Below are positions 2,154 through 49,396 of a stretch of 64,000 nt of DNA, piece by piece. The translations under genes and the position numbers were made by a program. The notes under the pieces are model-generated. The model was not told where the DNA came from. It worked only from the letters and a program-made list of their open reading frames with translations, and ran no database searches. The stretch's first letter is position 1; every line of letters begins with the position of its first letter. This DNA is from Patescibacteria group bacterium (GTDB lineage: Bacteria; Patescibacteriota; Patescibacteriia; Magasanikbacterales; GWA2-37-8), in the NCBI GenBank assembly GCA_004321885.1, contig SCQK01000007.1:64001-128000 (forward strand), written 5' to 3'.

Positions 2154-2245
2154 GGAGAGGTGGCCGAGTTGGCTGAAGGCGGCAGGTTGCTAACCTGTTG
2201 TAGGGCCTTAAAATCCTACCGTGGGTTCAAATCCCACCCTCTCCG
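2154..2245 (+). tRNA. tRNA-Ser (anticodon GCU), type II with long variable arm
   Basis: acceptor GGAGAGG/CCTCTCC; anticodon loop TTGCTAA; T-arm GTGGGTTCAAATCCCAC; long variable arm; 92 nt. Confidence 0.85.
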
Positions 2246-2365
2246 CTCAATGAGATGGAATTGAACGTTTGAGAACAGTGCTTGGAATGCGCGTTTATGC
2301 GCTCTTTCCTGCACTTTCAGCGTCACTGATTGAATAGAGACTGGGACTTCGAACCCACGAGGTGA

Positions 2366-2593
2366 TCAGGGCACTTCATCGAGGAATGGCACCTCTATCT
2401 GTCCACCGTCTGGGCTGATCGCGCCGACGCGCCACCCTTCACGCTTCCTTTTCAACATCCAACGATAGACCCGCACAGCGTCGTAGACGCCCTGTGTGAG
2501 CGGTTTTTCTCCGGAATGTGTGAGTTCTTCAGCCTCGTTCTGTTTGAGCCGAAGGTGAAGATCTATTGCCTTCTTGTCAGTCTTCATGGGCAA
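2366..2593 (-). CDS. hypothetical small basic protein (island cargo)
   Basis: 75-aa ORF in the GC-rich island; no clear motif. Confidence 0.3.
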   Translation of the reverse strand: MPMKTDKKAIDLHLRLKQNEAEELTHSGEKPLTQGVYDAVRVYRWMLKRKREGWRVGAISPDGGQIEVPFLDEVP

Positions 2594-2784
2594 AGACTTC
2601 TCCTAGAGTTATGTAGATCTCTCGATCGTAGTTCCAAGAAGTACCGGAGTCAAGCATATTTGTCACACCGGTGCGCGATGTGCTCCCTTGTGGGGGAGGA
2701 AATGGAACGCGCATGTTCGAAAATGTTCTTGACACATCCAATGCGGTTCCGGTACGGTAATACAAACAACCAAACGGAGGAGTC

Positions 2785-3678
2785 ATGGTCGGCAAGGTCG
2801 CGATCTTCGGGGTGTTTATGGGAACGTTCGCCGCTGGTTGTGGCGAACCGCTCGGCGGGAGCGATGACCAGGACGTCGAACAGGTCGTGCTTCAATATCT
2901 CCGGGATCACGATCCGGGCATCACGCGAGGGTCGCCGGAGTACATGGTCTTCCTTAAGGACATCCTGTGGGGTTTGCACCCCGACCTCTTGAATCACAGT
3001 CGCGGGACGAAGATTGGCGAGTTCGCCGCGGCGTATATTAGCAATGCTGTAGCGCCGCTATTGGATGATGAACAAGCTCCGAGGCCGACCATCCAGTCAC
3101 AGACTTCCGCCCTCACCAGCGGCTTCAACCGCAACGCCGTGGTGAACTATGCATATGCTTGGGCGAGCAACGGCGGCAAGAAAAGAAACGGTGCTTACGT
3201 CAGTTTCGACAATGACTGCACGAATTTCGCCAGTCAGGCGATCAAGGCCGGTGGAGTCCCGGCAATTGGTAGCGGCTCGTGCGGCTATGAGGAGACGACC
3301 TGGGAGTGGTACTCCCAGTTCTCCTTGGCTTGGTGGTGTCTCAAGAAGTGGGCCGTTTCCACCACGTGGGTCAGGGTCTCTGAGTTTTACCAGTACCACG
3401 TGCAGAACAAGCGTAACGCATCGACTGGCCTCTACTACCTTGGCAACCTGAACTCCTTGCGGTCTGCAGCTCGTCCGGGCGACATCATTCAGCTGCAGTT
3501 GGCTTCCAGCGGCACCCTGTTTCACTCGATGGTCGTGACCAAGAAGGACAGCACCGGCGAGATCTATTGCACCTATCACACCGGTCCCAACGGCTACGAT
3601 GTCGTTGACAAGCCGCTGGCCTCCATCGCAGCCAACTACGGGAACACGAGCTACTATCGTCTCAACAGGTTTGACTAG
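2785..3678 (+). CDS. putative amidase-domain (CHAP/NlpC-like Cys peptidase) lipoprotein
   Basis: GGAGG RBS 6 nt upstream; lipobox-like TFAAGC; 'NDCTNFASQAIKAGG' Cys motif typical of the putative amidase domain family. Confidence 0.55.
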   Translation: MVGKVAIFGVFMGTFAAGCGEPLGGSDDQDVEQVVLQYLRDHDPGITRGSPEYMVFLKDILWGLHPDLLNHSRGTKIGEFAAAYISNAVAPLLDDEQAPRPTIQSQTSALTSGFNRNAVVNYAYAWASNGGKKRNGAYVSFDNDCTNFASQAIKAGGVPAIGSGSCGYEETTWEWYSQFSLAWWCLKKWAVSTTWVRVSEFYQYHVQNKRNASTGLYYLGNLNSLRSAARPGDIIQLQLASSGTLFHSMVVTKKDSTGEIYCTYHTGPNGYDVVDKPLASIAANYGNTSYYRLNRFD

Positions 3679-3754
3679 CAAAGCGGCAACAACGCCCGCC
3701 CCGAAGCCCTATTCCACCTGCCCGTCGTCATTGTTTGTAAGTCGCACATATTCT

Positions 3755-4231
3755 ATGACATTTCGTCGTCGCATCGGTATCGTCTTCGTCTGCATCCTGC
3801 TCGGGTTCGTTGTTCTGTTCGTGGCAGGACCCGGTTTCATGGTGGTCGACAACAGGGACATCCGAGCCGCCGATGATGTCTCAGCGGAGGACATGGCCGC
3901 TTGGCTGGGAGATGCTGGCTGGCAGGCGGATGCTACAAAACATTACTATCTCATCAACGTATCGGGAGTTGTGCATTCTCTCTCGCCGCGATCGCTCAAA
4001 TACCTCGAGGCGCGCATCACAAATACCAAGGCGAATCTGCGCGTGTACGCCGTCACACCGTTATTGGGTTTTGTCGTTGAACCGTTTCGACTCGGAACGG
4101 TGAGCCTCCTGTTTCTGATAGAGACACCGGAAGAGCGAGACCTAGCGGACATCATGCGGCAGTTCAGCTTCTGTGTACGTCAAAGTGATCAGAGCGGGCT
4201 ATGTATGCCCGTGTTGTCGGGGACACGTTGA
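3755..4231 (+). CDS. hypothetical membrane-anchored protein (island cargo)
   Basis: ATG at 3755 followed by a TM helix (IGIVFVCILLGFVVLFVAG); the longer ORF call from 3599 is Ser/Thr/Pro-rich and an unlikely start. Confidence 0.35.
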   Translation: MTFRRRIGIVFVCILLGFVVLFVAGPGFMVVDNRDIRAADDVSAEDMAAWLGDAGWQADATKHYYLINVSGVVHSLSPRSLKYLEARITNTKANLRVYAVTPLLGFVVEPFRLGTVSLLFLIETPEERDLADIMRQFSFCVRQSDQSGLCMPVLSGTR

Positions 4232-5672
4232 ACTGGCCGGCTTCGGAGCGGAGCGACTGATCATACCCCGGCGCCAACGTGATCTGCGGCGATCCGGTGC
4301 TGAGCTCCACCTTGGCGACCACCGCCTCGATCACTGAGCGCCGTGTCACCGGGTCGTCGCTGGCCAGCTTGGCGTTCATGGATTCCACCACCTCAAGCAT
4401 GGTGGCTCCTCGCTCGTCATCCAACAGGTTCTCCGGTCTGTTCACCAAGAACCACTCGGTTGCCCGGATCTGCTGGAGGACTGCGCCGCGCTCCTGATCG
4501 TACTGGCTGTCGTCGACCAGGCCCCTGGCGTACTGACGAGCCAGATCCTTCAGCTTCTCGTCGAGCTCGCGCCGTTGCTGCCTGAGCAGGCGAATCCGCT
4601 CGCCCTGCTCCTTGCTTCTGGTCCGGCGTGCCTGGCGCTCCGCCCGGCGCAGGACAGGGACCATGGTGGCAGGCAAGTCCATTGCCAGCAGGTTGGCGCA
4701 GATCTCATTGTCAAGGTCGGCCGCTCGGGTGCAGAAGCTACAACCCTGCTGGTGGCAACGGTAGTAGTCGTGGATTCTGCCAGACTTCTTGATGTGTCGC
4801 TCGCCGGTCAGCGTCGCGGCGCACCTCGGGCATCTGACCTTGCCGGCCAGGACGAAGACCAGATGCTTCCGGCCGCCTCGCACACTGCCTCCGGCTTTTT
4901 GCCGAAAGACCTCCTGGCACCGGTCGAAGAGCTCTTTGGAAACCAAAGGTGGATGACTGCCCGGGTAGCTCCTGCCCCTGCTCATCATCACGCCGATGTA
5001 GAACGGATTCTTGAGCAGCCGGCACCATTGGTTAACCGGTACTTTCTTGCCGTGGACACCCACCAGGCCGCTGCTGTAGATCGTGTCCGCCAGCTGGCTG
5101 GCTGTCAGCTTTCCCGTAGCCCACAGTTCAAACGCTTCTCTCACCCTCGTTGCCCTCGCCGGATCCAGCACCACACGATCATTTTGCATCAAATAGCCCA
5201 GACAAGGGCGGCCGAACCATTTGCCCCGAAGAAGGCGCTCTTCGAGGCCCTTGCGAACCTCGGCCGAGAGGTTCGCGCTGTAGAACTCTGCTTGTGCTGC
5301 CATAATGTTTTCCAGAAACTCACCCATAGGGGTCGCTTCAAAGGATTCCACCACCGAAAACAGCTTTACTCCATATTCCTTGAGCTGGCCCTTCAAGATG
5401 AGATGATTAAAGACGTTGCGGGACAGCCGGTCGATCTTGTGGACGACGAGGCCACTGATGGACTTGTCCCGTTTGACGTGGCCGATGGCGGCCATGAGCC
5501 CCGGACGCCCGCGCAACTGCCTGCCCGAGCTGACGTCCTGGTACCTGGCGGCCACGATCAAACCACGTTCCTCGGCGTATCGCTGCATCAGCCGAAACTG
5601 AGCCGCGATGGAAAGCTCGCGTTCCGCCTGCCGAGTGGTGGAGACGCGAGCGTACAAAATGACTGCTGACAT
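4164..5672 (-). CDS. large serine recombinase (resolvase/invertase N-domain + recombinase domain + zinc ribbon)
   Basis: N-terminus MSAVILYARVSTTRQ with catalytic Ser; later C-x2-C ... C-x2-C Cys clusters; 502 aa. Confidence 0.85.
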   Translation of the reverse strand: MSAVILYARVSTTRQAERELSIAAQFRLMQRYAEERGLIVAARYQDVSSGRQLRGRPGLMAAIGHVKRDKSISGLVVHKIDRLSRNVFNHLILKGQLKEYGVKLFSVVESFEATPMGEFLENIMAAQAEFYSANLSAEVRKGLEERLLRGKWFGRPCLGYLMQNDRVVLDPARATRVREAFELWATGKLTASQLADTIYSSGLVGVHGKKVPVNQWCRLLKNPFYIGVMMSRGRSYPGSHPPLVSKELFDRCQEVFRQKAGGSVRGGRKHLVFVLAGKVRCPRCAATLTGERHIKKSGRIHDYYRCHQQGCSFCTRAADLDNEICANLLAMDLPATMVPVLRRAERQARRTRSKEQGERIRLLRQQRRELDEKLKDLARQYARGLVDDSQYDQERGAVLQQIRATEWFLVNRPENLLDDERGATMLEVVESMNAKLASDDPVTRRSVIEAVVAKVELSTGSPQITLAPGYDQSLRSEAGQFNVSPTTRAYIARSDHFDVHRS

Positions 5673-5763
5673 AGGAGAGGGGTTAAGAGTAACTCCACCT
5701 ATGGTCGCAGCGCCCGAGCTGCTTTACAACCAAAAGAGAAACCACTATAATTGAAGTGTTTTT

Positions 5764-7455
5764 ATGTTACTACATGCGGATAACACGCTGGGAGTCGGAC
5801 AACCGGAAGGAAACAACCGGGTACGAAGGACGTCCCAGAATCCCCGCATGCGCGCAGTTGCAAAAATTTTTCTTCTTCTGGCCGGCTGGCTTATCGTCGT
5901 TTCCATTGTTTCCAATTCGTTTGACAACGACCTGGGCTGGCATTTGCGCTTTGGCCAAGACGCCCTAAGCGGCGATTTTCAGTACACCGACAGTTATACC
6001 TGGGGCTTTGCCGGGCGCGAGTGGGTAAACCACGAATGGGGGGCCGATATTTTATTTTGGATTATTTACAGCCGCGTCGGCTACTTCGCCCTGGCGCTTC
6101 TCATCGGCACGGTAATCTGGGCGGCATTTGTGCTGGCGCCTCTTATTTTTGCGCGTTTCAGTTTAGGCGCTCTCGCGATTTCGCTGCTCATGGCCCTGGC
6201 CGCGGGCTTTACTTTTGTCACGCGCGTCTCCATGGCGGCGCCGCTGTTTTTTGTTTTGCTCTGGTTTTCGCTGGAAAGAAAAAAATATTTTTTCCTGTGG
6301 CCGATTTTATTCTGGGCGTGGTCTTTTCTGCATGGTAGTTGGATACTGGGATTTATTTTAATAAACATTTATTTGGTTGGAGAAATAATTCCCTCCACTA
6401 TTAGAGCCTGCCCTGAACTTGTTTCAGGGGGAGGGACAAAAGGTGGAGTTGGCAAGAAGCTCTGCTGGCAAATCATTTCCGCGGCCGCGATTCTTCTCAA
6501 TCCGTACGGCATAAAACTCTGGCGCGAGGTGCTCTCCTATTTTATATACAGCGACTACAAGCGGCTGATTATTGAATGGCTGCCAAGCTACAGTTACCCC
6601 ATTCGCTGGTGGCCCATAATTATCGCGGGAGCGGCCGGCGTTTTGCTTTACCTGGGGTGGAAAAACAAAAAAGCGTCTTTGACCCACGTATTGTTATTTT
6701 TGGCCATATTTTTAGCCGCCATGCAATACAAGCGCAACAATATTTTGCTGACGCTCGTTTGCGCGCCGATTTTCGCAATAGCTTTGGAAGAAACAAAGAA
6801 GAAACTACTCTCAATTGCCATTCCGAACCCGAAGGGTGAGGAATCCCTTCGCCTTACGAGTAAGTTTAAGGGATTCCTCGCTCCGCTCGGAATGACAACG
6901 GCGATTGTCCTCTTCGCCGTCTCAGCCGTTTATTACCTTCCCCGCCTGCGGGCGCAAAATGACGTCTGGCAGGACAAAAATTTTTTGACCCGGCACGGCT
7001 TTCCGGTCAAAGCCGTTGATTTTGTAAAAAAACTACCGGCCGGAGCGAAAATTTTCAACGAATTCGGCTGGGGCGGTTTTTTTATCTGGCAAACGCCGCA
7101 AGTAAAAATGTATTTTGACGGACGGGGCGCGGCCACCTGGCGCGACGCCAATGGCGAATTCATGCTTAAAAAATATCTGCGCTACCTTGGCGAAAAAAAA
7201 CAGTTGCCCGAATTAAGCAAAACTCCGGCTGAATATATTTTGCTGGAAAAAAACAGGCTGGCCCTGCCGCCGCCCGGCTGGAGCGACAAACTGTTTTTCA
7301 AAAAAGAAAACTTGGCAAAAATAATGGAGCGCAAGCCGCCGTTGCTTGAAACCGACCTGACGAAAAGCAGTGATTGGAAACTGATTTACAGCGACGAGAT
7401 GACGAACATTTGGAAAAGAACCGCGGACATGAATTCCGGCTCAAGCCCGGAATGA
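5764..7455 (+). CDS. polytopic membrane protein, possible GT-C-type glycosyltransferase
   Basis: at least 10 hydrophobic helices; D-N-D-containing first loop (SFDNDLGWHLRFGQ); contains in-frame palindromic repeats at 6391-6440 and 6838-6897; the true start may be the internal Met at about 5845. Confidence 0.45.
   Translation: MLLHADNTLGVGQPEGNNRVRRTSQNPRMRAVAKIFLLLAGWLIVVSIVSNSFDNDLGWHLRFGQDALSGDFQYTDSYTWGFAGREWVNHEWGADILFWIIYSRVGYFALALLIGTVIWAAFVLAPLIFARFSLGALAISLLMALAAGFTFVTRVSMAAPLFFVLLWFSLERKKYFFLWPILFWAWSFLHGSWILGFILINIYLVGEIIPSTIRACPELVSGGGTKGGVGKKLCWQIISAAAILLNPYGIKLWREVLSYFIYSDYKRLIIEWLPSYSYPIRWWPIIIAGAAGVLLYLGWKNKKASLTHVLLFLAIFLAAMQYKRNNILLTLVCAPIFAIALEETKKKLLSIAIPNPKGEESLRLTSKFKGFLAPLGMTTAIVLFAVSAVYYLPRLRAQNDVWQDKNFLTRHGFPVKAVDFVKKLPAGAKIFNEFGWGGFFIWQTPQVKMYFDGRGAATWRDANGEFMLKKYLRYLGEKKQLPELSKTPAEYILLEKNRLALPPPGWSDKLFFKKENLAKIMERKPPLLETDLTKSSDWKLIYSDEMTNIWKRTADMNSGSSPE
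6391..6440. repeat. composite palindromic repeat (CCCTGAAC-TTG-TTTCAGGG core) inside a CDS, in frame
   Basis: near-identical copy at 7738-7795 inside comFC. Confidence 0.8.
6838..6897. repeat. family-A-variant palindromic element (GAGGAATCCC...GGGATTCCTC...CGGAATGACA) in frame
   Basis: related half-copies at 14483-14520, 15248-15285 and 39070-39105. Confidence 0.75.
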
Positions 7456-7464
7456 CAATCGCGG

Positions 7465-8262
7465 CTAACCCCTGGCCAAAGTGAGCCAGTAAATTTTTTG
7501 CGCGCCGGCCGCTTTCAGCACGCGCGCGCATTCCTGCATGGTGGCGCCGGTGGTGTAGACATCATCAACCAGCAGAACGTATGCGGGCGCCGGAGCCGGT
7601 CCCTTCCACGCGAACGCGCCGGCCACGTTTTGCGTCCTTTCCTCTTTGCTTAACCTGGCTTGATGAGGAGTGTAGCGGGTGCGAACTAATACCCCCTCCT
7701 CTATCCTCCCCCTAATAGGGGGAGGGTTCTGTGTGAGTCCCTCCCCTTTTAGAGCCTGCCCTGAACTTGTTTCAGGGGGAGGGATACAGGGAGGGGTATT
7801 CAAAGAGTCCAAAAAAATTTTTGCCAACACTTTCGCCTGGTTAAAGCCGCGCTCGCGTTCGCGGCGCGGGTGCAGGGGAACTGGAAGAACTGACCAGCAT
7901 ATTGGCTCCACAGCCCCGACTAAGTCGGGGACTATGGAGCCAGCCACGCTAATTATCGTTCCGACCGAGCAGAGCGAACGGAGGAACCCCTTTTTCTCAC
8001 TTATTATTTTTTCAAAAACATTTTTAATGTCTTTGGCAAAGCCGTATTTGAATTGTTTTATCAGCCTGCCCACGGGCCCGTTTTCTTCATAAACAAAAAA
8101 AGACGCACCTCGGTCCAGGTGCGCGTCCGCGGGCCAAAGCGCGCACTCATTTTGGTGTTTGGCCCGGCAAAGCTTGCACCACCACTCCCCTTCCACGCCG
8201 CAATCCACGCACGAGACCGGGAAAAGAATATCTTTGAACCAGCGCGCGGAGGCGGCCAGCAT
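7465..8262 (-). CDS. comFC: ComF family protein (zinc ribbon + phosphoribosyltransferase fold)
   Basis: N-terminal C-x2-C...C-x2-C; RGFNQA and LLVDDVYTTGATM PRTase motifs; a 35-aa in-frame repeat-encoded insertion (7690-7800). Confidence 0.7.
   Translation of the reverse strand: MLAASARWFKDILFPVSCVDCGVEGEWWCKLCRAKHQNECALWPADAHLDRGASFFVYEENGPVGRLIKQFKYGFAKDIKNVFEKIISEKKGFLRSLCSVGTIISVAGSIVPDLVGAVEPICWSVLPVPLHPRRERERGFNQAKVLAKIFLDSLNTPPCIPPPETSSGQALKGEGLTQNPPPIRGRIEEGVLVRTRYTPHQARLSKEERTQNVAGAFAWKGPAPAPAYVLLVDDVYTTGATMQECARVLKAAGAQKIYWLTLARG
7690..7800. repeat. composite palindromic repeats (GC-hairpin C family + CCCTGAAC..TTCAGGG) in frame within comFC
   Basis: CCCTCC..GGGAGGG hairpins and a copy of the 6391-6440 element. 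Confidence 0.8.
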
Positions 8263-8263
8263 A

Positions 8264-8866
8264 CTATTGCCAGCTCACGGCGCCGACCAGCCACTCATTG
8301 CCGATTTTAAGCAAATTTACTTTATAGGAAACCTGTTTGGAAGACGTGGCGCCCGCTTTTTCCTCTACGCGCGTGGCCTGCAAAGCCACCCCGGCGCTGG
8401 CGCCGTCCCAGTCGCTAAGCGACGAAGCGATGACCTTGGTTGTAACGCCCAAAAATTCCACGGCCGGTTTTGTATTTTTAAGAGGCGCGCTGATTTTTTG
8501 CCACAAAACATCAGTTACCAAATTTTCCAGCTCGCGAATATTGTCATAATTATTGTCGGTGGAATATGTGCCATAGCGCTCCACGAAAATTTTGGCTATC
8601 TGCCTCACCCCGTTTTTTTGCGCTTCCAGCGACGTCGGTTTTTTCACCACCAGCGGCGTGGTGGTGGCCAAGGGATTTTGCACTCCCGCCGGCGTGCCGT
8701 CCGTGTAAGCCGCGGGTAAAACATTTTCAGTTTTGTTTTCTTCGGCCGGCGGCGCTGTCTCCGATTTTTTCTTTCCGGCATACGTTAAAAAAACGCTGAC
8801 ACCGATAATTATGATAACTATCGCTCCGACGAAAATGAAAATTCTGGCGCGTAGAGGCATATACAA
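8264..8866 (-). CDS. membrane-anchored hypothetical protein (T4SS-locus associated)
   Basis: N-terminal TM helix then Ala/Pro/Thr-rich linker; translationally adjacent to the VirB4-like gene. Confidence 0.45.
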   Translation of the reverse strand: MYMPLRARIFIFVGAIVIIIIGVSVFLTYAGKKKSETAPPAEENKTENVLPAAYTDGTPAGVQNPLATTTPLVVKKPTSLEAQKNGVRQIAKIFVERYGTYSTDNNYDNIRELENLVTDVLWQKISAPLKNTKPAVEFLGVTTKVIASSLSDWDGASAGVALQATRVEEKAGATSSKQVSYKVNLLKIGNEWLVGAVSWQ

Positions 8867-8875
8867 AATTTATTA

Positions 8876-10747
8876 TCACTGATTTTCTTTTTCAAATTCT
8901 TTTTTGGCCGCTTCAATGTCCAGCAACTGCTGGGGATTGGTGGTCACAATCTGGTCTTCGGTGTAGGAGGCCACCACTTTAATGGCCGCGTGCTTGTTGC
9001 CGGCGAAAAAAATCCCCTCACCCACAGCGCTTTCCAAAAGCAGATATTTTTCGCCCTCGGTTAAAATAAACACTTTTTGCACCAAATCAATGGCCGCCGG
9101 CGACTGACGCAACAAAAGTTGCAGGGCCGAGTTCGTCACAATCGCCTGACCGTATTGCGAGCGCAAAAAATCATTCACATCCTGCGTGATGGTGGTAACG
9201 CCCAAAAAATATTTGCGGCAGCGCTTGACCAGGGCGAAAATAAAGCGAGCGCTGTCCTCGTGCTGCATCAGCCACCAGGCCTCGTCTATGGCCAGAATCC
9301 TTTTCTTGCGCTCCGAACGCACAACGTTCCAAATATAGTTGACGATGGCGTAAATGGCCAGGGGGCGCAACTCGTCTTCCAAATCGCGCACCGAAAAAAC
9401 CACCAGCTGATTTTTCACGTCCACGTTGGTGGGCGAATTAAACAGACCGCTAAACGTGCCCTCGGTAAATTTTTTCAATTTCAAGACCAGCTCGTTTGAC
9501 CCTTCCATGCCCTCCAAAATTTCCTCCAAATCCTGCATAATGGGCGGCGTCACCTTGGTCAAATCCGCGTCCGGCGTGATATCTTTTTTGGCGTAAGTTT
9601 CTATGAGCGCGCGGTCAATGATGGAATCCTGCTCGGTGGTAAGCCCGCCCAGCATGATGCGCAACAGCCCCTTCACGGTAATGACCGCCCCGCGGATAAT
9701 ATCATCCACGGAAATTTCCTGACCCACGGGCCGCGGCAAATCAAAGGGGTTCACCTTGCTTTCCGAAGATAAAGAAATATTTATATAGGTGCCGCCCACG
9801 GCATCGCACAAATGCTTGTATTCCATTTCCGGGTCAATCACGATAATGTCCGTGCCCATCATCATGGTGCGCAAAATTTCCAGCTTGATGGCATAACTCT
9901 TGCCGGCGCCGGAAGTGGCGAACACCACCATATTGGCGTTTTGCAAAGAAAAGCGGTCAAACAAAATCAGGCTATTGTTGTGTCGGTTGATGCCGTACAA
10001 GATACCGTCATCCGAGGTGAGCTCGGCGGAAATAAACGGAAAACTGGCCGCGATGGGGCTGGAGTTCATGTTGAAAGCGACCGCGATTTCATCGTTGCAT
10101 AAGGGCAGGGTGGAATTAAAACCCTGCTCGGACTGATAAAAAACCTTGCGCGAATAAATGAGCTTGCCGCCAAAAACATTTTCAATGTCTTCGCAGGTCT
10201 GGTCCAGCTCTTCTTTGGTTTTGGCGTAAACCGTAACATAAAACGCAAACTGAAAAAAATGCTCGGTGCCCTGGGTGAGATTGTCGCGCAGTTCTTCTAT
10301 GTCGCGCAGGGCGGTTTCGCGAATCGGGTCGCGCGGCGCGCCTTTTTCCGCGTCGGCGTTTATCTGCGCTTCCAGGGCGCCGACTTTATTGCGCAACTGC
10401 TTCAAAATTATAGCTGACTTGACCGGATAAAAAAACATGCCGATGTCCATGGTCACGGACATATTAAGAATGGGCGAACTCCAGCCCACCGAAATATAGC
10501 GCGGATAGGTGATGACAAAAATGGTGCGGCAAAAAATATCGCCCAGCTTCACGAAGCCGGTCTCCACGTTGAAAGCCGAGGGCGCGATGATGTCCTTAAT
10601 GGAAACCGTGCCCTCGCGATAAGCCCGCTCTTCGGCCAAAATCATGGTCTCGGCCGCGGCTTTCTTTTTTACCGCCTCTTCTTCTTTGCGCAGGCGGCTC
10701 TCGTCGGGCTGGCCGGTTGGTTTTACGATTTTTGGTGCAAAAGCCAT
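8876..10747 (-). CDS. virB4: VirB4/TrbE-like conjugal transfer ATPase (C-terminal ATPase part)
   Basis: Walker A ATSGAGKS; Walker B ILAIDEAWWLM; 623 aa. Confidence 0.8.
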   Translation of the reverse strand: MAFAPKIVKPTGQPDESRLRKEEEAVKKKAAAETMILAEERAYREGTVSIKDIIAPSAFNVETGFVKLGDIFCRTIFVITYPRYISVGWSSPILNMSVTMDIGMFFYPVKSAIILKQLRNKVGALEAQINADAEKGAPRDPIRETALRDIEELRDNLTQGTEHFFQFAFYVTVYAKTKEELDQTCEDIENVFGGKLIYSRKVFYQSEQGFNSTLPLCNDEIAVAFNMNSSPIAASFPFISAELTSDDGILYGINRHNNSLILFDRFSLQNANMVVFATSGAGKSYAIKLEILRTMMMGTDIIVIDPEMEYKHLCDAVGGTYINISLSSESKVNPFDLPRPVGQEISVDDIIRGAVITVKGLLRIMLGGLTTEQDSIIDRALIETYAKKDITPDADLTKVTPPIMQDLEEILEGMEGSNELVLKLKKFTEGTFSGLFNSPTNVDVKNQLVVFSVRDLEDELRPLAIYAIVNYIWNVVRSERKKRILAIDEAWWLMQHEDSARFIFALVKRCRKYFLGVTTITQDVNDFLRSQYGQAIVTNSALQLLLRQSPAAIDLVQKVFILTEGEKYLLLESAVGEGIFFAGNKHAAIKVVASYTEDQIVTTNPQQLLDIEAAKKEFEKENQ

Positions 10748-10752
10748 AGGTA

Positions 10753-11433
10753 TTATTCTACCTGCATCTGATTCGCCGGCGCCAGGTATTGGCTAAACGC
10801 CACGTCCGGATTATACGTTGAATAAAATAATTCTATCAGGGATTGCGTGTCCAGGCGCGCCACTTCCAGGTTCATTGAAGCCAAACCCCCTTCCACCTGG
10901 CGCACGCGCGCGTCTAAATCTTTTTTTCTCTGCAAAAACCGGTCTTCTTTGAGAGTGATGATAGTAGCCGGATTAATCGTCTCCATCGCGCGCGGCCAAA
11001 AGCCGCGTTTTTTGTTAGAAAGCGGGTCGTAGGGCACAATCACGAAAAACTGTTTGCTCATGATTTTGCCGAGCGACACCAGCTCGGTGATAAACGAGCG
11101 GTAATCGGCCGTCTGCGCGCGTAAAAGCTCGTTGCTTTGCTCGCGCTCTTTGGTTAGTAATTTTTCCAGATAGGGCTTGATATATAACTGACGCGATTGC
11201 ACCACCACCTGCAGGGGAAAATCCAGGGAGTTCAAAAAAGAAACATACGACGACACCAGCGCGTTTTGCTCTTCCTCGCTTTTGAGCGCGAAATTAACGC
11301 TGGAAACCATCAGCAGGGCGCGCAGGGTGCCGTCTTTCATGACAACAGTGTCTGATTTGATTTCAGAAAAAGGCAGATGATTCTGCGCGGACGGAATAGC
11401 TCTTTTTTTGGCCAGCGTTTTTTTATTTTGCAT
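10753..11433 (-). CDS. VirB4 N-terminal-domain-like protein (split or frameshifted virB4?)
   Basis: 226 aa ending 5 nt before the ATPase ORF in a different frame; combined length about 850 aa matches Gram-positive VirB4 homologues. Confidence 0.45.
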   Translation of the reverse strand: MQNKKTLAKKRAIPSAQNHLPFSEIKSDTVVMKDGTLRALLMVSSVNFALKSEEEQNALVSSYVSFLNSLDFPLQVVVQSRQLYIKPYLEKLLTKEREQSNELLRAQTADYRSFITELVSLGKIMSKQFFVIVPYDPLSNKKRGFWPRAMETINPATIITLKEDRFLQRKKDLDARVRQVEGGLASMNLEVARLDTQSLIELFYSTYNPDVAFSQYLAPANQMQVE

Positions 11434-11477
11434 ATGTTTTTCCCTCCCCTTGCGAAGGGGAGGGTTAGGGAGGGGTC

Positions 11478-11906
11478 TTACTCGGGTTTGTAATATCCCC
11501 CGGTATTCACAATCAAAGACAAATCCCTGATTCTGTTATACGACAATCGCGGCATGGCCTTGGCCGCTTCTTCTATTTTTTTCTCCGCGTTCGCTTCGCG
11601 CAATTTTTTCAAATCGGCGTTGGAATATTTTTTCTGCCAGATGCGCAGGCTGGGCCGGCGCGCGGTGCCGGCGATATTTAGGATAAAATAATGAAACGGC
11701 TGGCCGTTGATTTTGACAAAAGCGAAGGTCAGCGACAAGCCGCCGAAAAGCGCGGTGAGGAAAATAAACAAAGCCATGTCGGCCAATTTGAAAGACAAAA
11801 ATATCAACAGACTGCCTGCGAGCAAAATGATAAACTGCCTGGTGGTGATGGGCCCAAAAATTTTGTCTTCCACGTCTATGAATTGCGGCACCGTGAATTG
11901 ATCCAT
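11478..11906 (-). CDS. PrgI-family small conjugation membrane protein (VirB3-like)
   Basis: MDQFTVPQFIDVEDKIFGPITTRQF start and two TM helices, characteristic of PrgI/TcpE-like proteins that accompany VirB4. Confidence 0.55.
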   Translation of the reverse strand: MDQFTVPQFIDVEDKIFGPITTRQFIILLAGSLLIFLSFKLADMALFIFLTALFGGLSLTFAFVKINGQPFHYFILNIAGTARRPSLRIWQKKYSNADLKKLREANAEKKIEEAAKAMPRLSYNRIRDLSLIVNTGGYYKPE

Positions 11907-11907
11907 A

Positions 11908-13101
11908 CTATAATTCTTTCTCCATCGCCACTATCGCTTTTATTTCTTCTATCTTTATCCCGCCTTTTTCCGTCGCTGTCTGCGCCAGGGTTTTTCTGTC
12001 GGCCAACGCGCCGCACACCGCGTCCATGTATTCCAAATAAAGAGGGCTCTGTTTCCAGGCGGCCTGCGCGTCCATATATAATAGGTAGGATTCGTCGCGC
12101 AGGTTGATGAATTTTTGTTTCAGGCGCTGGCCCGCCTCGGCGCAGTTTTGCGCCAAACGGCGAAAATCCGTCAGACTAATATATTTTACCTCATCTATGG
12201 GTCCCATTTCAACAGGCGGAGCGGAAATATCCCGCATGCTCTGTTTTACCGGCGCGCTTCCTAACTTGAACGACGAGGATTGTGTAGCCCCCTCCCCTCT
12301 TAGGGAAACCGTCATCTTCCCCTCCCCTTGATAAGGGGAGGGCTCGCCACCACACCAAAATTTTTGGTGTGGTGGCGAGGGAGGGGCAGTCGCAACCGGC
12401 TTCTCTTCAGGCGCCAAAAGCGCGTGCAAAAGCTCGTTGGCTTTTTTCTTGCTCTCGGGCACAGTTGGTCCCCCCCCTCCTTTAGAAGGAGGGGGCAAGG
12501 GGGTGGTCTTGACCTTTTCTGAATGTTCAAACGGGTTAAACGGAGTTGCTGTCGCCGGCAACAATACCTCTTCGCACGCTCCCGCCGCTTTCTCGGCCTG
12601 ATTGGCCGTAAAACCCATGCCACCGTCTTTTATGGAACGCAATAAAATATTTTTCGTTTCTTCGGGCGAGCGCACGTCTTTGAGGCGCAACTGAATAATA
12701 CTGCGCAAGCGATTGATAAAGTTGGGCGGCACTGGAAAATTTATTTTTTTGAGCGCCTGGTCCACCTGGCTTAGGCGCGGCTCGCTCAATTTCGGCGCGT
12801 CGCCCTTGGCCGGCGCCGGCTCTTCCAAAGGCGACCGAAAATCATTATTCGCTTTCTTCGTTCCCATCATCGGCGCCGTGGGATACGGCGGTCGTTTTGG
12901 CGCTACTTTCACTCCCTCCCCTTTTAGGGGAGGGGCAGGGAGTGGGGTATTGTGCGCCGCTTGTCTTACCTGCGACAAAGGCATGCGCACAAAACTGCCG
13001 TCGGCCTTTTTTACCAAAATTGTTGGTTCGTTTGGCATATTATTTACCCCTGCCTCCCTCCCCCTTAAATAAAGGGGGGGACAGGAGGGGGTATTATTCA
13101 C
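11908..13101 (-). CDS. Pro-rich hypothetical protein with four in-frame GC-hairpin repeat insertions
   Basis: the first 20 codons are encoded by a repeat, so the likely true start is MPNEP at about 13038; repeat-encoded segments at 12286-12345, 12470-12500 and 12912-12950. Confidence 0.45.
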   Translation of the reverse strand: MNNTPSCPPLYLRGREAGVNNMPNEPTILVKKADGSFVRMPLSQVRQAAHNTPLPAPPLKGEGVKVAPKRPPYPTAPMMGTKKANNDFRSPLEEPAPAKGDAPKLSEPRLSQVDQALKKINFPVPPNFINRLRSIIQLRLKDVRSPEETKNILLRSIKDGGMGFTANQAEKAAGACEEVLLPATATPFNPFEHSEKVKTTPLPPPSKGGGGPTVPESKKKANELLHALLAPEEKPVATAPPSPPHQKFWCGGEPSPYQGEGKMTVSLRGEGATQSSSFKLGSAPVKQSMRDISAPPVEMGPIDEVKYISLTDFRRLAQNCAEAGQRLKQKFINLRDESYLLYMDAQAAWKQSPLYLEYMDAVCGALADRKTLAQTATEKGGIKIEEIKAIVAMEKEL

Positions 13102-14425
13102 TAACTAATTTTAAGTCTTTCGCCACCTGCGCGGCCAAGGATTCCACGCTGTCAAATTTTTTGGGCAGGCGCAAATAACGTTCGGTGCGCGCTTCTATTT
13201 TTTTTCCATACAAATCGCCCGCAAAATTCAAAACATGAACTTCCAGGCAGTCTTTTTTTGTTAAAGAATTATATCCATAATATAGCAAGCCGGAATACCC
13301 CTTCCCCTGCCCCTCCCCTAAAAGGGGAGGGTGGCTATCGGTGGTTCCTCCCCTTTTTAGGGGGAGGACAAAGGAGGGGGTATTCGCAATGAAAGCGACG
13401 GAGCACGTATACAATCCCCTGGGCAAATTTTTGGCCAGCGCCACGTCCAAGTTGGCCGTGTGAATCCCTACTTTATCCCCTTGTCCATAGCCGGGCAAAA
13501 CCGCGCCGGCCACCACGCGCGAACGGTGTAAAAACACAATTCTGGTTACGGCCGCCGCCAGCGCCGCCGCTCCCAAAATTTGCGTGGCCGATAACGCGTT
13601 GCCATTTAAATAATAATCCAAAATAATGGCGGACACGGGCCAGGACAGCTCGCACAAAGTCGCCACCGAAGCGGTGATTTTTTTCAGGCCGAAATAGTAC
13701 AAAAACATGGCCGCGGCTCCGGATGTAAAAACTATAATGATTAAAGTCGTCCACTGGGCCGCGCCCACCGACGGCAGAGAGGAAAAATAGCGCGCCGCCG
13801 GAATCGCCATAATCAAAACCGTGAGCCCAAAGCGCAAAGCCGCCAGCAGGCCATAGCTGATATTTTTTAGGGAATATTTTCCAAAGGTGGTGGCCGAACC
13901 CCAGGCAAACGCGGCCAGCATGGAAAAACCGGCGGCAATGGGAACAGCCGACATCGCGCTAGAAACCGCGAACGGATTTTTGAAAGTAACAAAATATCCC
14001 GCGACCAGCGCGAGCGGGGCGTAAAAATAAAACGAGCGCGGAAATCGCTCGCGTAAAAATATGGCGGCCAAGATAATCGCGAAAATCGGCTGAAATTTTT
14101 GCAAAAGAATCACTACGGAAATATCTTTGAAGCCCGTGGCAAACAAGGCCTTGGTGATAAAAATCGTGCCCAAAGCCCCGCCAAACAAGGCCACCCAAAA
14201 AATTGCGACCCACTCTTTGCGTTTTATCAGTTTTAACTGGGCGCGGTAAACAACCAAAAACGGCAACAAGGCGACAAAACCGAGCAGGTGCTCCAAAAAC
14301 ACCAGCAAGGCCGGTTGCAAGGAATACAAACGGGGTCGCAAAAAAGTGCCGTCCAAACTCCACAGCAGAGCGGCCAGCGCCACGGCCATTGCCCCGATAA
14401 TCACGCTATTTTTTTTCATAATCAT
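13094..14425 (-). CDS. EamA/DMT-family transporter joined to a riboflavin-kinase-like C-terminal domain
   Basis: 10 TM helices, then GYGQGDKVGIHTANL ... LEVHVLNFAGDLYGKKIEARTERYLRLPKKFDSVESLAAQVAKD resembling the RibF kinase domain; a repeat-encoded insertion at 13305-13385. Confidence 0.5.
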   Translation of the reverse strand: MIMKKNSVIIGAMAVALAALLWSLDGTFLRPRLYSLQPALLVFLEHLLGFVALLPFLVVYRAQLKLIKRKEWVAIFWVALFGGALGTIFITKALFATGFKDISVVILLQKFQPIFAIILAAIFLRERFPRSFYFYAPLALVAGYFVTFKNPFAVSSAMSAVPIAAGFSMLAAFAWGSATTFGKYSLKNISYGLLAALRFGLTVLIMAIPAARYFSSLPSVGAAQWTTLIIIVFTSGAAAMFLYYFGLKKITASVATLCELSWPVSAIILDYYLNGNALSATQILGAAALAAAVTRIVFLHRSRVVAGAVLPGYGQGDKVGIHTANLDVALAKNLPRGLYTCSVAFIANTPSFVLPLKRGGTTDSHPPLLGEGQGKGYSGLLYYGYNSLTKKDCLEVHVLNFAGDLYGKKIEARTERYLRLPKKFDSVESLAAQVAKDLKLVSE

Positions 14426-14480
14426 TTGTCATGCTGAACCACCAGCTGGCGGTTGTTTCAGCATCTTCGCTTTCTTCGTC

Positions 14481-14596
14481 ACCCCACTGTCATTCCGAGC
14501 GGAGCGAGGAATCCCTTATACTACGTTAACAGTTTCTATATCCCCCTTCTTCAAATGCAACACAATCGCCAGCGCCTCGCACAGCCACGAGGCGCG
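14481..14596. repeat. about 115-bp direct repeat, copy 1 (remnant of the 3' end of gene 15271-16254)
   Basis: about 90% identical to 15236-15350; encodes ASWLCEALAIVLHLKKGDIETVNVV* on the minus strand. Confidence 0.8.
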
Positions 14597-14723
14597 TTGT
14601 CTCACACATTAATAATGATTGTGAATAAAAACTGTGGACAAAACGCCTTGACAAAAAACTCTTTTCTTGATATATTAGATTCGGATAGTAACGATGAAAA
14701 GACCCTCGTAAGAAGATACGTGC

Positions 14724-15248
14724 TTACGGGGTGCTTTTTTTATACTCAACTTTATTCCTCAAATCACTAACAAAACTAATTTTGCCGCCGGCCACTTTCC
14801 GCAATAAGTACGAGCAACTGGACGGCGCGGGCGCGATCAAGTGGCAAAACTTATTTTGTTTTCGCAAATAGTCAACTAAACAATGAAAATCACCATCGCC
14901 GCTGACAATTACGGCCTGATCATAATTCTGATATTCTATCATCGTGTGTAAAACCAATTCGGCGTCACAATTCCCTTTTACTTCACCGTCTTTCAATATT
15001 AGAGTTGGTTTAAATATCAAAATGTAACCAACCTCCTGAAGAAATTTATACAACTCCTCATTGCCAAATAAAAAACCAATGAACATAAACGCCTTCGCGA
15101 CGCTATATTTGTCTTTCAAATACCTGCGAAAACGAAAATAATCCAGCTTCCAACCAATGCGCTGCATACTGAAATATAGATTCTGACTGTCTATAAACGC
15201 GAAATTGTTTTCTTTCATACTTCGTTTCCCTCCCCGCCCCACTGTCAT
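14724..15248 (-). CDS. NYN/LabA-like domain protein (predicted RNase)
   Basis: FIDSQNLY...KGNCDAELV...SGDGDF motifs. Confidence 0.65.
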   Translation of the reverse strand: MTVGRGGKRSMKENNFAFIDSQNLYFSMQRIGWKLDYFRFRRYLKDKYSVAKAFMFIGFLFGNEELYKFLQEVGYILIFKPTLILKDGEVKGNCDAELVLHTMIEYQNYDQAVIVSGDGDFHCLVDYLRKQNKFCHLIAPAPSSCSYLLRKVAGGKISFVSDLRNKVEYKKSTP

Positions 15249-15350: not shown

Positions 15351-16254
15351 AAGCCTCGCGCTCCTCTTGTCCGCGATAAATATTCTGCAAGAATTTTTCC
15401 GCCTCCAAAATTGCCGTGTCCTGATTGTAGCCACGGCCGGAAAAATCTTTGAGCAAAACCGATAATTTTCTGCTTTCATCTCCGGCATCGCTCGTCGGCA
15501 CGCTCTCGTTGCTTTGCTCCAACGATTGTATGATGTTCCGGCTCATGGCGTCAAAATCCGCGTCGCTCTTGCCGCCCAAAAATTCCCCCAGATAAAATCG
15601 CGCCGGCACGCCGGTCACGATGGCGCTATAAAAATAATTCTGCAATAAAAATTGTCTTTCATTCGCGCCAAACTGGCCAAACATCTTCCACACCGCCTGC
15701 AAGAGCATGGAAAAAATAAAAGCGTCATCCCAAAAATATTGTTTTTTAATATCTTCTGATTTCGAAACAGCGGGTAGTGTGCGCACAAACATTTCGCCGA
15801 TTTCTTTATCCGCGCCATTTCGCAAAAAATCCCCGAGCGTCGCCACAAAAACCAAATCATTATAAAATCCGCCTTCGCCTTTCAAAATAATTTTCAATTC
15901 TTCTTTTTCGTATGGCTTGACGCCAGCGCCCAAACCCAGAGCCGCTGAAATAAACGATAGCTGTAGCGCCAATGCGCCGGCGATTTCGCTATCGTCTGGC
16001 TTATCCATAAATTCGGCGACCAATTCGGAATCCAAAAACAAAATTATTTCTTTTTCAATCACGTCCATTGCTCCGGATAACTCTTCCTTAGTCGCTCGCG
16101 CGCCAATTTGCGAAGCGTAATCAAACATTTTCTCGTTTGCGCCCTTGGCAATCAAATCCGCTTTGGCTTTTTCCAATTCCAAAAACGCCTCGCGAACATC
16201 CTGCCACGAACACCTTCTAAACTCGCATACTTTGCGCCTGCCGAGGGTGAACAT
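15271..16254 (-). CDS. hypothetical protein (T4SS-locus)
   Basis: 327 aa, acidic, no motif recognised. Confidence 0.5.
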   Translation of the reverse strand: MFTLGRRKVCEFRRCSWQDVREAFLELEKAKADLIAKGANEKMFDYASQIGARATKEELSGAMDVIEKEIILFLDSELVAEFMDKPDDSEIAGALALQLSFISAALGLGAGVKPYEKEELKIILKGEGGFYNDLVFVATLGDFLRNGADKEIGEMFVRTLPAVSKSEDIKKQYFWDDAFIFSMLLQAVWKMFGQFGANERQFLLQNYFYSAIVTGVPARFYLGEFLGGKSDADFDAMSRNIIQSLEQSNESVPTSDAGDESRKLSVLLKDFSGRGYNQDTAILEAEKFLQNIYRGQEEREAYASWLREALAIVLHLKKGDIETVNVV

Positions 16255-16263
16255 AAAGCAATT

Positions 16264-16578
16264 TTATTCCTCTCCTTCGTCAGATTTATCAAAAAAATTT
16301 TCAACCAACTCTGACAAATCAAGACGCCTTCTTTCTTCTGCACTCTTTTTATTAAATTCTAAAACAGAATGCAAATCTTGTTGTTGCCTTGATGTCAAAT
16401 TTCGACTCTCCAGTTCTTTAACGACCAGTTCCGTCGGCGCCTTCAAATTATCATATATGTATCTTTCATTACTATTCGGGGCTACACGCGCGCATAACAT
16501 TCTAAAAACATCCTTAGTTGTATTTTTTTTGAGCTCTGATTTAAAATACCCTTCATTTTCTTTTGTATCGATAGTCAT
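16264..16578 (-). CDS. hypothetical protein
   Basis: 104 aa; tightly packed in the operon. Confidence 0.4.
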   Translation of the reverse strand: MTIDTKENEGYFKSELKKNTTKDVFRMLCARVAPNSNERYIYDNLKAPTELVVKELESRNLTSRQQQDLHSVLEFNKKSAEERRRLDLSELVENFFDKSDEGEE

Positions 16579-16600
16579 AATTATTTTTCATCTATAACTT

Positions 16601-17794
16601 TCAAGCAAGTGGTTGCGCGAAATTACTAAAAATAAAATCTTTCTTCTTTTCGTCAAAATATAATAATGGCTCTCCGGATTTATAATAATCCATATAAATA
16701 TCATTCACTTGCAGCAAATTTGAAAATAAAGGTTCGCTGTGGTAATCCGTTCCGTCCAATTTAATAACGGATTTAATGTAGGCCGCCGCCTGTTCGGCTG
16801 ACACCTTCGCGAACCATTTCTTTAAATTCCGCGTGTCTTCATCCGTAAGGGGAACATGCAAAATGGCATACGTTATGTCCGCAGTCAGATTTGATTTTGT
16901 TATATCAATGTTATTTATGTCAATCCCAATAATGCTTCCGTTCATTATATGCAAATATAACTTCAAGATAATTCCGATTATCAGGCCGTCCGCTTCGCTG
17001 GTCAAATTAAAATATTTATCATTACTCAAAAAATCTAAAAGTTGCATTTCGTTCAAATCCGACTGTGCAAAATTAACAAAGATGGTAATCCAAAAATGAA
17101 TCGTATATAAATCCATTTCATTCTGCGGACCGATTATTGTCTGATTGTCCAACAGAAAACCAGCTAATTCCAAACTGCGTTTGGTTCGAACATCAAACAA
17201 ACTGGAGTCGCTCTTAAGCATGTCCGCCAAAATCGCTTCAATATCAAACCCGATTTCAATCGCCAAGACGATCAAACTGCTATGTAAAAAATAATCTTGT
17301 TCCGTAGAATTAAGCCGGCCAAAAAAATAACAGCATAAAACGACATAAATCCGCCGCAAGAACGCGGCCAGTTCCGCATCTATTCCTTCAAAAAATAACC
17401 CGGCTGCGGAATTTTTTGCCAGCTGGCGTAATAAAATCAAAACCTCATTCTGCTTGCCGAAATTTATCGCTACATAAACCGTGCGAATTAATTTATCGCG
17501 CTGAAGCGAATCCTTCGTGTCGGTCGGTTTGAATTTTTTTATTTCTTCCAATGTCAATTCACCGACCGCGGGATTTCGGCCGCGCATTGTTTTTACCAGA
17601 TTTTCACAATCGCCAAAATTTTCCTTTTTCGTCGTGGAGGTCAGCGGATAAAACTGATACGCCAAAGCTTCTTCCCAGGGAAGTAAATCAAAACCTTTGA
17701 TTAGTTGCTCAAATTCGCTCTTGTCTTTCGCTGAAATATTAAGCAAACTAACAAAGGAAGACAGCGTAAAATTTTCTCTGACAATTTTAGCCAT
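16601..17794 (-). CDS. hypothetical protein
   Basis: 397 aa; no motif recognised. Confidence 0.5.
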   Translation of the reverse strand: MAKIVRENFTLSSFVSLLNISAKDKSEFEQLIKGFDLLPWEEALAYQFYPLTSTTKKENFGDCENLVKTMRGRNPAVGELTLEEIKKFKPTDTKDSLQRDKLIRTVYVAINFGKQNEVLILLRQLAKNSAAGLFFEGIDAELAAFLRRIYVVLCCYFFGRLNSTEQDYFLHSSLIVLAIEIGFDIEAILADMLKSDSSLFDVRTKRSLELAGFLLDNQTIIGPQNEMDLYTIHFWITIFVNFAQSDLNEMQLLDFLSNDKYFNLTSEADGLIIGIILKLYLHIMNGSIIGIDINNIDITKSNLTADITYAILHVPLTDEDTRNLKKWFAKVSAEQAAAYIKSVIKLDGTDYHSEPLFSNLLQVNDIYMDYYKSGEPLLYFDEKKKDFIFSNFAQPLA

Positions 17795-17801
17795 AAATTA
17801 A

Positions 17802-23885: not shown

Positions 23886-24284
23886 ATGACTGATTTAGCC
23901 AGGCAACTGGAATTTTGGCTTTCGTCGGCCTCAAAAAATTGGCAGACCGCACTTTCTCTGTATAAATTAGGCCATTATGACATGTGCTTATTTTGCTGTC
24001 ATTTGACTTTAGAGAAAAAACTTAAAGCTATTATTGTCTACCTATTGAAAAAAGTACCACCGCCGATTCACGATTTAAATCGTTTAGCGCAAATCGCGGG
24101 GTTAAATGTTTCTCTCACACAACAAGAACAGCTTAATGAAATAACGAAATTTAATATCCAAGCCCGTTACGATGATATAAAATTGGCTTTTTACAAAAAA
24201 GCTACCAAATTATTCGCAAAAAAATATTTGGAAATAACACAAGAATTAATTTTATGGCTGGAAAAAAAATCGGGCGAGAAGTAA
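23886..24284 (+). CDS. HEPN-domain protein (TA-like partner of MNT)
   Basis: 132 aa alpha-helical; overlaps the downstream nucleotidyltransferase by 31 nt. Confidence 0.55.
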   Translation: MTDLARQLEFWLSSASKNWQTALSLYKLGHYDMCLFCCHLTLEKKLKAIIVYLLKKVPPPIHDLNRLAQIAGLNVSLTQQEQLNEITKFNIQARYDDIKLAFYKKATKLFAKKYLEITQELILWLEKKSGEK

Positions 24285-49365: not shown

Positions 49366-49396
49366 ACTTTATTATTGATTTGACATTTGTAATTTG

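Follow-up and report, generated by a model that had tools for sequence, protein, structure and literature searches.

The window analysed here is a 64,000-nt stretch of a Patescibacteria contig (SCQK01000007.1, positions 64,001 to 128,000). Near its start, a tRNA-Ser(GCT) gene and a host membrane-protein gene enclose a block with four open reading frames (ORFs), one of which encodes a large serine recombinase (LSR). An earlier note, made from the sequence alone, had described this block as a GC-rich island integrated at the tRNA gene, with a recombinase, an amidase, a small basic protein and a membrane protein as its genes. The tRNA-Ser(GCT) gene is on the forward strand (2154-2245) and is intact (Rfam RF00005, 59.3 bits, ending at 2245; ARAGORN, 2154-2246). 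G2245 is the discriminator base N73 and no CCA is encoded. A host promoter-like site of the tRNA gene, TTGACT-16-TATAAT with a TG element, is found on the same strand at 2117-2144, in flanking host DNA outside the element. On the other side, the promoter-like site of the membrane-protein gene, TTTACA-17-TATAAT (5723-5751, forward strand), marks the start of host DNA. Its TATAATTG box is kept in three relatives (contigs L008, L009 and L104). The membrane-protein gene itself starts at 5848; the NCBI protein, annotated from this start, has 535 residues, which is why an exact look-up of the 563-aa version returned no match. The organism was taken in the note to be similar to members of the Candidate Phyla Radiation (CPR), and this is borne out. 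The recombinase, the amidase and the flanking membrane protein are identical to proteins on a 214.5-kb contig of a Patescibacteria metagenome-assembled genome (MAG), and the named homologues of the membrane protein belong to Candidatus Magasanikbacteria.

The recombinase gene lies on the reverse strand (4164-5672) and encodes 502 residues. As the note had proposed, the protein has the domain set of an LSR. Its Pfam matches are Resolvase (PF00239, 1.6e-30, residues 4-152), Recombinase (PF07508, 1.4e-10) and Zn_ribbon_recom; the zinc ribbon (PF13408) scores 22.6 bits, slightly below the cut-off of 25.3. Of the four cysteines of this Cys4 ribbon, C281, C284 and C306 never vary within the family, and C311 hardly does. 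The catalytic serine, S11, is part of the motif YARVSTTRQ, and 22 family members all share residues Y7, R9, S11, Q15, D81, R82 and R85. The AlphaFold2 model (pLDDT 83.6) contains long coiled-coil helices at 333-382 and 388-410. Search for structural similarities using Foldseek gave full-length matches to serine integrase-att complexes (best E 4.6e-22), namely 9y66, 9dxh, Bxb1 9iu2, PhiC31 9rah and 4kis, the LI integrase being among them. The protein also matches the PHROG 95 integrase (3.7e-79). By its domains and residues it is a complete LSR, with predicted integration and excision activity.

Other assignments of this enzyme were rejected. The IS607-family transposon model NF033518 reaches 42 bits against a cut-off of 110 and covers the catalytic core only; the 502-aa protein has the LSR architecture and no TnpB is found at the island. 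Scores with the Ccr and XisF equivalogs of NCBIfam are also far too low (XisF, 104 bits against 375; CcrB, 89 against 900; CcrA, 84 against 700; CcrC, 52 against 900).

At the tRNA gene's 3' end, an imperfect inverted repeat spans positions 2225-2266. GTTCAA (2225-2230), in the T-loop, is separated by 30 nt from TTGAAC (2261-2266), on the element side. This is a perfect match to the form GTTCRA-N30-TYGAAC, with its centre of symmetry at G2245|C2246. We propose this dinucleotide as the probable crossover on the tRNA side, so that the tRNA-Ser gene would serve as the attB-derived half of an att junction. Beyond it, positions 2246-2310 (reverse strand) were assigned by comparison as a putative right-end module of the element, composed of a P arm and a hairpin, GCGC-ataaac-GCGC (2289-2302). 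An equivalent hairpin-plus-arm module is located directly 3' of the recombinase stop codon in minimal relatives. In the window, about 1.85 kb separates the module from the integrase stop.

The note had also advised a search for an attL/attR core at both ends of the island; direct repeats beyond chance were not found. A displaced 3' fragment of the tRNA was sought near 5660-5765 and no repeat was detected. An island of the tyrosine-integrase type, with the Islander signature, was discarded on the same ground and because the sole recombinase is of the serine type. For a serine integrase, a direct-repeat att core is not expected. The tRNA-side junction fits a short imperfect inverted repeat around a 2-nt crossover, and the far junction is bracketed within 5673-5722. 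A second perfect GTTCAA-N30-TTGAAC sequence is present at 49326-49367, where about 0.015 occurrences are expected by chance. It was considered as an att site and rejected: the surrounding sequence is an AT-rich spacer between genes that contains TTGACAT three times but lacks a tRNA, and we treat the match as coincidental or unrelated.

The geometry of the junction recurs in the recombinase family. At least 45 homologues have more than 40% identity, and the tRNA context could be scored at nine distinct loci. The closest homologues are 43-56% identical, and members on useful contigs are surrounded by housekeeping genes of the kind typical of CPR. As far as sampled, the family thus appears confined to CPR/Patescibacteria-like contigs; the lineage check that the note had called for gave this answer for every relative with useful context. 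In IMG/VR, no relative of the recombinase was found above 35% identity. Beyond the recombinase stop, six of the nine loci have the 3' end of a convergent tRNA or tRNA-like sequence at a distance of 45-106 nt. Five of these are called tRNAs, at 46-106 nt (L004, Arg-TCG; L005 and L099, Arg-GCG; L007, Ala-TGC; L101, Pro-TGG). The sixth, in L103, is at 45 nt; it is a tRNA-like 3' end that includes CCA and is not called by ARAGORN. At L097, at the annotated tRNA of L103 and in the window, the tRNA is 1.0-1.9 kb away, with small genes in between. The close arrangement is seen in only 1 of 55 generic viral LSR loci (Fisher p = 7.5e-6 versus the family). Allowing one mismatch at most, GTTCRA-N30-TYGAAC is found at 6/6 family-adjacent tRNAs, the window included, and at 0/25 other tRNAs of the same sequence set (p = 1.4e-6). 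Its centre of symmetry is always N73|C74, which reads G|C in the window and A|C in the other family members.

One relative has moved recently. The P0002 element, a unit of 1,775 bp, occurs in two unrelated contexts with 99.7% identity. It contains an integrase gene, the hairpin and the ends, and nothing else. The identity starts and ends at GT, the centre of the junction repeat, which provides direct evidence for movement of these units and for a crossover at this point. In the single member with both ends defined, the arms are 15 and 20 nt from the centre.

Further observations concern individual family loci. L002 carries, at 9760-15124, a tandem array with at least three related element left ends and attP-like GTTCGA-N35-TCGAAC joints (see also L003, 2959-4765); the second unit of the array has a recombinase without catalytic domain, plus an IS3 insertion. 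In L103 (7515-7680), an att-type repeat adjoins the uncalled tRNA-like 3' end with CCA, which may belong to an intron-containing tRNA, as described for Patescibacteria. In L007, region 7802-9745, 5' of the recombinase, encodes an SLT lytic transglycosylase and a 206-aa ORF, with a GC content at third codon positions (GC3) of 0.78-0.89 versus about 0.3 in the host. A cell-wall enzyme is thus found close to an integrase of this family for the second time.

The far, recombinase-proximal end of the element falls within 5673-5722, because the host promoter begins at 5723; this agrees with the GC change-point (5620-5740). The interval contains a family-conserved TTAAC/GGTTAA motif just 5' of the recombinase ATG, and its GC dinucleotides are all confined to 5709-5722. 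The left end of the L004 element is GT followed by 20 nt and TCGAAC, 244 nt 5' of the ATG, and it has no clear counterpart in the window. G5709|C5710 was considered as the far crossover, since gttaag (5684-5689) plus 20 nt reproduces the L004 spacing. This candidate is not relied on: the arm matches at 4/6 positions and overlaps the TTAAC motif, which is conserved 5' of all integrase genes of the family. Related TAACC or GGTTAAC..TTAACC-like inverted motifs are seen 8-25 nt 5' of the recombinase ATG in the window (5682-5700) and in L007, L097, L099, L101, L103 and L005. The conserved TTAACC-like motif is in Shine-Dalgarno position and could be an operator or a translation signal.

The locus was also compared, as the note had recommended, with relatives. 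In L008, L009 and L104, where VirB4 is 79-83% identical and the downstream gene order is the same, the tRNA-Ser(GCT) gene adjoins the membrane-protein gene and there is no island. The island is absent from these three relatives, but they are distant, with membrane proteins 42-45% identical to that of the window, and the strand of the tRNA gene, discussed below, also limits the comparison. L009 contains a different LSR (31% identity) that converges on the same tRNA-Ser. The difference in orientation aside, this supports insertion at a recurrent hotspot. In two of these relatives (L008, 1-360; L104, 221-415), the 5' end of tRNA-Ser(GCT) is duplicated (cacctctcca) beside the promoter of the membrane gene, with an insert in between, and the L008 insert encodes a GIY-YIG-like ORF.

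An independent assembly reproduces the arrangement. Logan contig L001 is 100% identical to the window across 2218-6430, from the tRNA tail through the island and into 720 nt of the host membrane gene. This bears on the possibility that the locus is an assembly or binning chimera, in which a GC-richer fragment would have been joined, at a conserved tRNA, to a contig of CPR origin. L001 covers just the last 28 nt of the tRNA, so that it backs the left junction by an overlap of k-mer length only. However, its perfect identity across the island, the span of the 214-kb MAG contig on both sides, and the family-specific arm that matches the geometry of this very tRNA-Ser make a chimera extremely improbable. 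With a Logan k of 31, which we take to be the value used, the break of L001 at 2218 implies a second path that diverges at about 2248. It was not retained as proof of an empty site, because any genome with the same tRNA tail would give such a break. At its other end, L001 was terminated by an exact 34-nt repeat with a hairpin, present at 6403-6436 and 7751-7784: AGAGCCTGCCCTGAACTTGTTTCAGGGGGAGGGA (41 nt at 95%). The repeat is in frame in two host ORFs on opposite coding strands, those of the membrane protein and of a ComF-like protein.

The composition of the island is atypical. Region 2247-5700 has a GC content of 57.6%, versus 48.9% in the remainder, and no other segment of 3.45 kb within the 64 kb is as GC-rich. 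In tetranucleotide usage, the region is at a distance of 0.43 from the rest, where windows of the same size give 0.20 on average (standard deviation 0.043), an excess of about 5.5 standard deviations. GC3 of the amidase and recombinase genes is 0.75-0.76, compared with 0.42-0.67 (about 0.58) in 23 host ORFs. Likelihood segmentation with two boundaries defines a GC-rich block at 2775-5655 (59.1% versus 50.3%, with a gain of 34 log-likelihood units), with support intervals of 2640-2840 on the left and 5620-5740 on the right. The formal check of codon and tetranucleotide usage suggested in the note therefore confirms a deviation. The GC shift it had reported is real but goes from 49 to 58%, not from 45 to 60%. 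Neither does GC jump immediately after the tRNA, as had been stated: it is only 51-53% over 2250-2700 and the climb begins at about 2700, some 450 nt past the tRNA. Nor is the region beyond the recombinase AT-rich, both flanks having about 49-50% GC. Despite this late rise, we place the beginning of the element DNA at the tRNA tail because a family-type att junction is centred at 2245|2246.

One alternative is that there was no insertion and that the genes are native, their GC excess being due to gene-specific constraint or ordinary heterogeneity. The window is indeed heterogeneous (1-kb GC values span 35-62%), and the lag of the GC rise behind the tRNA would fit this idea. However, the deviation is seen in GC3 as well as in tetranucleotide usage, relatives lack the block between tRNA-Ser and the membrane gene, and an att-type junction is present. 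We regard an entirely native origin as very improbable. Other compositional anomalies of the window are marked low-GC stretches at 16001-18000 (38-39%) and 24001-25000 (34.7%), versus a background of 49%.

The compositional difference had been read in the note as the mark of recent acquisition from a much GC-richer donor. This is not shown by the data. The recombinase gene is GC-richer than its surroundings at all eight other family loci, usually by 8-19 points and marginally in L097. The excess persists even at L005 and L099, which share the same tRNA-Arg locus and have diverged recombinases. Because all members are richer than their surroundings, the GC excess is a trait of the family rather than the signature of a donor. 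Moreover, since L005 and L099 keep it while having diverged about as much as host genes, it cannot be read as a sign of recent arrival from a GC-rich donor.

Three ORFs accompany the recombinase. The first encodes a 297-aa secreted Amidase_6 or papain-like cysteine amidase (2785-3678, forward strand; Pfam 1.2e-26). PF12671 scores 94.3 bits against a cut-off of 23.2, and the motif NDCTNFASQ is present. C145, H247 and H265 are invariant in an alignment of 9 sequences. An extra N-terminal domain of about 110 residues is found only in four close homologues. Among 5.8 billion clusters there are no other close homologues. One of the clusters bears the name Caldilineales, and another homologue is on a contig with 69% GC in which the gene itself is compositionally atypical. 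A foreign origin of the amidase with respect to CPR is plausible but unproven. Fold matches of the low-confidence model (pLDDT 61.7) are weak. YjcM is the best, followed by a Bacteroides N-acetylmuramoyl-L-alanine amidase and CHAP, and also NlpC/P60; a sequence search of the PDB gave no match. A cell-wall role, on the wall of the organism itself or on that of the host bacterium of an episymbiont, is an unproven suggestion from such models. The N-terminus, MVGKVAIFGVFMGTFAAGC, has A rather than L/V/I at position -3 of the lipobox [LVI][ASTVI][GAS]C, and the homologues have ordinary signal peptides without Cys. The amidase is thus possibly a lipoprotein, as judged from a non-canonical lipobox only.

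The second cargo gene (3755-4231, forward strand) encodes a 158-aa protein with one N-terminal membrane helix; its 3' end overlaps that of the recombinase gene by 68 nt. Six weak, distant homologues were found with HMMER among 1.84 billion representatives. The third is a small ORF on the reverse strand (2366-2593), of 75 residues from a TTG or 73 residues from the ATG at 2587. Its calculated pI of 8.05 makes it merely mildly basic. Neither small protein has a family in Pfam, PHROGs, NCBIfam or PADLOC; as a guess, the 73-aa protein might be a regulator or a directionality factor. The inventory of the earlier note is thus accurate for the tRNA-Ser gene, the full-length LSR, the Amidase_6 gene and the two small ORFs. 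Its GC values are not.

The amidase and its small membrane neighbour raise the question of a phage origin, which the note had put forward for the hydrolase. The island could be a decayed prophage, in which an integrase and a lysis cassette, with the amidase as endolysin and the membrane protein as holin, were left after loss of the phage body. The amidase has a weak match to a PHROG peptidase (4e-07) with the small membrane protein beside it, the integrase matches the phage integrases of PHROG 95, and CHAP endolysin domains are among the fold matches of the low-confidence amidase model. These integrase and peptidase matches are the only links of the four island ORFs to PHROGs; no phage structural, packaging or replication gene was detected among them. 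In IMG/VR, identity to the recombinase reaches 35% at best, and the family members with resolved ends are integrase-only or have non-phage cargo. In addition, a signal peptide or lipobox is present in the amidase, the neighbourhoods of the amidase homologues are not those of phages, and the hairpin-plus-arm module is intact beside the tRNA. These data do not support a phage-derived hydrolase, and we consider a prophage remnant unlikely.

Altogether, region 2246 to about 5710-5722 (about 3.46 kb) is probably an integrative element, mobilised by its own LSR and inserted at the 3' end of tRNA-Ser(GCT). An integrated element between the tRNA and the recombinase gene, as the note had it, is upheld by the att architecture that the tRNA-side junction shares with relatives of the recombinase. 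In the mechanism that we propose, the tail of a tRNA gene would be the chromosomal attachment site of the family. One recombinase half-site would be the universal T-loop sequence GTTCRA, and its mirror image, TYGAAC, would be provided by the element 30 nt away. Strands would be exchanged at N73 and the next base, G2245-C2246 in the window and A-C in relatives. Because the exchange would fall at this position, the mature tRNA would be left intact. In its minimal form, of about 1.8 kb, the element would have nothing more than its two ends, a short hairpin and the gene for the integrase. On the simplest reading, about 1.85 kb of cargo would have been captured in the window element between the integrase stop and the hairpin-plus-arm module: the secreted Amidase_6 cysteine amidase, the small membrane protein and the 73-aa ORF. 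None of the cargo is shared with the other family loci. The window copy may still be able to excise. As no island ORF is for transfer or replication, uptake by transformation or hitch-hiking has to be assumed as the route between cells.

Several observations weigh against this reading. The tRNA-Ser(GCT) gene is on the opposite strand relative to the membrane-protein gene in all three relatives (L008, L009, L104), so that one has to postulate either an additional rearrangement or an ancestral orientation unlike the present one. A true empty site was not found in scans of genome and metagenome contigs and in a search of 5.8 billion proteins, in which the relatives of the flanking membrane protein are at best 42-45% identical. 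Only about 50 bp separate the recombinase ATG from the host promoter, and the window copy may be truncated and immobile. The mirrored arm is missing at the nearest called tRNA of two cargo-bearing loci, L097 and L103 (annotated tRNA-Thr). Finally, the L005 and L099 recombinases occupy the same tRNA-Arg locus and their divergence is similar to that of host genes, a pattern that could reflect long vertical residence rather than frequent mobility. The upstream flanks of these two loci are not syntenic, and their comparison did not define left boundaries.

Some of these points would favour a resident, domesticated recombinase that rearranges the locus, for instance by inverting the tRNA-plus-island segment through a palindromic GC crossover. 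The orientation of tRNA-Ser would be explained, and the hint of long residence at one locus in L005 and L099 would fit. The proposed core in the window, GC, is palindromic, whereas relatives have GT/AC; with PhiC31 and Bxb1, palindromic cores abolish polarity. However, no second inverted site was found around the segment, and one has to go 47 kb further to meet the sole other GTTCAA-N30-TTGAAC match, in a spacer that is AT-rich and promoter-like. Such a role also agrees poorly with the foreign composition and with the true mobility of one relative, and we judge it quite improbable. Insertion of a mobile element remains our preferred explanation.

Two features of the host flank are mentioned for completeness. 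A 20-nt inverted repeat (6838-6879; 85% complementary, 2-nt loop) is located inside the membrane-protein ORF, where Rfam returned only a spurious miRNA-like hairpin. Directly downstream, from 8876-11433 onward, VirB4/DUF87-, TraC- and PrgI-like genes are syntenic and 67-83% identical in L008, L009 and L104. This conservation suggests a core locus of type-IV-secretion-like genes and not a mobile element.

A more general model can be formulated. A clade of serine integrases, so far encountered in no other than Patescibacteria-like genomes, would be specialised on tRNA tails, with the T-loop as half-site and strand exchange at N73/N74, and close relatives would have colonised Ser, Arg, Ala and Pro tRNAs. 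Its basic unit would be a 1.8-kb integrase-only selfish element, GC-richer than every host and occasionally capturing cargo. We see about an even chance that this model is correct in full. The island itself is modest; what is worth following up is the recurrent and geometrically defined use of tRNA tails by an integrase family. Its recurrent association with tRNAs would offer a testable model of a serine integrase that reads a tRNA gene. Such elements would explain one source of strain-level variation and gene gain in very small CPR genomes. With about 500 residues and a site in the tRNA tail that every organism possesses, these compact integrases could become a tool for intractable CPR bacteria and their hosts.

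The window recombinase has the same domain set (catalytic serine, recombinase, zinc ribbon and coiled-coil domains) as the integrases of Bxb1, PhiC31, Listeria A118/LI and TP901-1. The tRNA-side junction also resembles their att sites in being short and roughly symmetric around a central dinucleotide, and long direct repeats are absent. These phage-type serine integrases are 12-17% identical to the window recombinase in structural alignments, and identity to any LSR of IMG/VR is at most 35%. In contrast to them, the window family is carried by elements of 1.8-3.5 kb that lack phage genes and are targeted to a tRNA tail, not to a protein-coding gene, and the arms are unequal (15 and 20 nt) in the one member with both ends defined. 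Small non-phage elements that excise and integrate by means of an LSR include Tn4451/Tn5397 (TnpX/TndX) and SCCmec (CcrAB/CcrC), and SCC elements target the 3' end of a conserved housekeeping gene. The window recombinase is outside these families (Ccr/XisF scores of 52-104 bits versus 375-900), no mobilisation gene is present and the target differs. The amidase resembles B. subtilis YjcM and the NlpC-P60/CHAP amidases in its Pfam match and invariant Cys-His-His, and differs by its N-terminal domain of about 110 residues.

In terms of target, there is a parallel with the tyrosine-integrase islands catalogued by Islander and TIGER. These are also located at the 3' part of a tRNA gene that remains functional, with the integrase gene at the edge and small cargo. 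Here, however, the enzyme is of an unrelated family, neither a direct repeat nor a displaced fragment of the tRNA is present, and the crossover would lie after N73 rather than in the anticodon or T-loop. Islander excludes serine integrases since tRNA targeting is regarded as a hallmark of tyrosine integrases (PMC4383910). In the large LSR survey of Durrant et al., tRNAs are unmentioned (PMC10083194). In our literature search, no report on Patescibacteria came up in which LSR elements are described at tRNA genes. In the TIGER survey (Mageeney et al. 2020), 14/297 serine-integrase islands were placed computationally at t(m)RNA genes, and the authors wrote that serine integrase use of t(m)RNA 'has not been reported previously' and needs proof (PMC7192596). 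Those 14 islands also combine a serine integrase with a tRNA gene. Compared with them, the association in the window family recurs, involves five tRNA species, has a defined junction geometry and is found in Patescibacteria hosts. Targeting of tRNA tails has so far been credited almost only to the unrelated tyrosine integrases, and its recurrent use by this serine integrase family is the new part.

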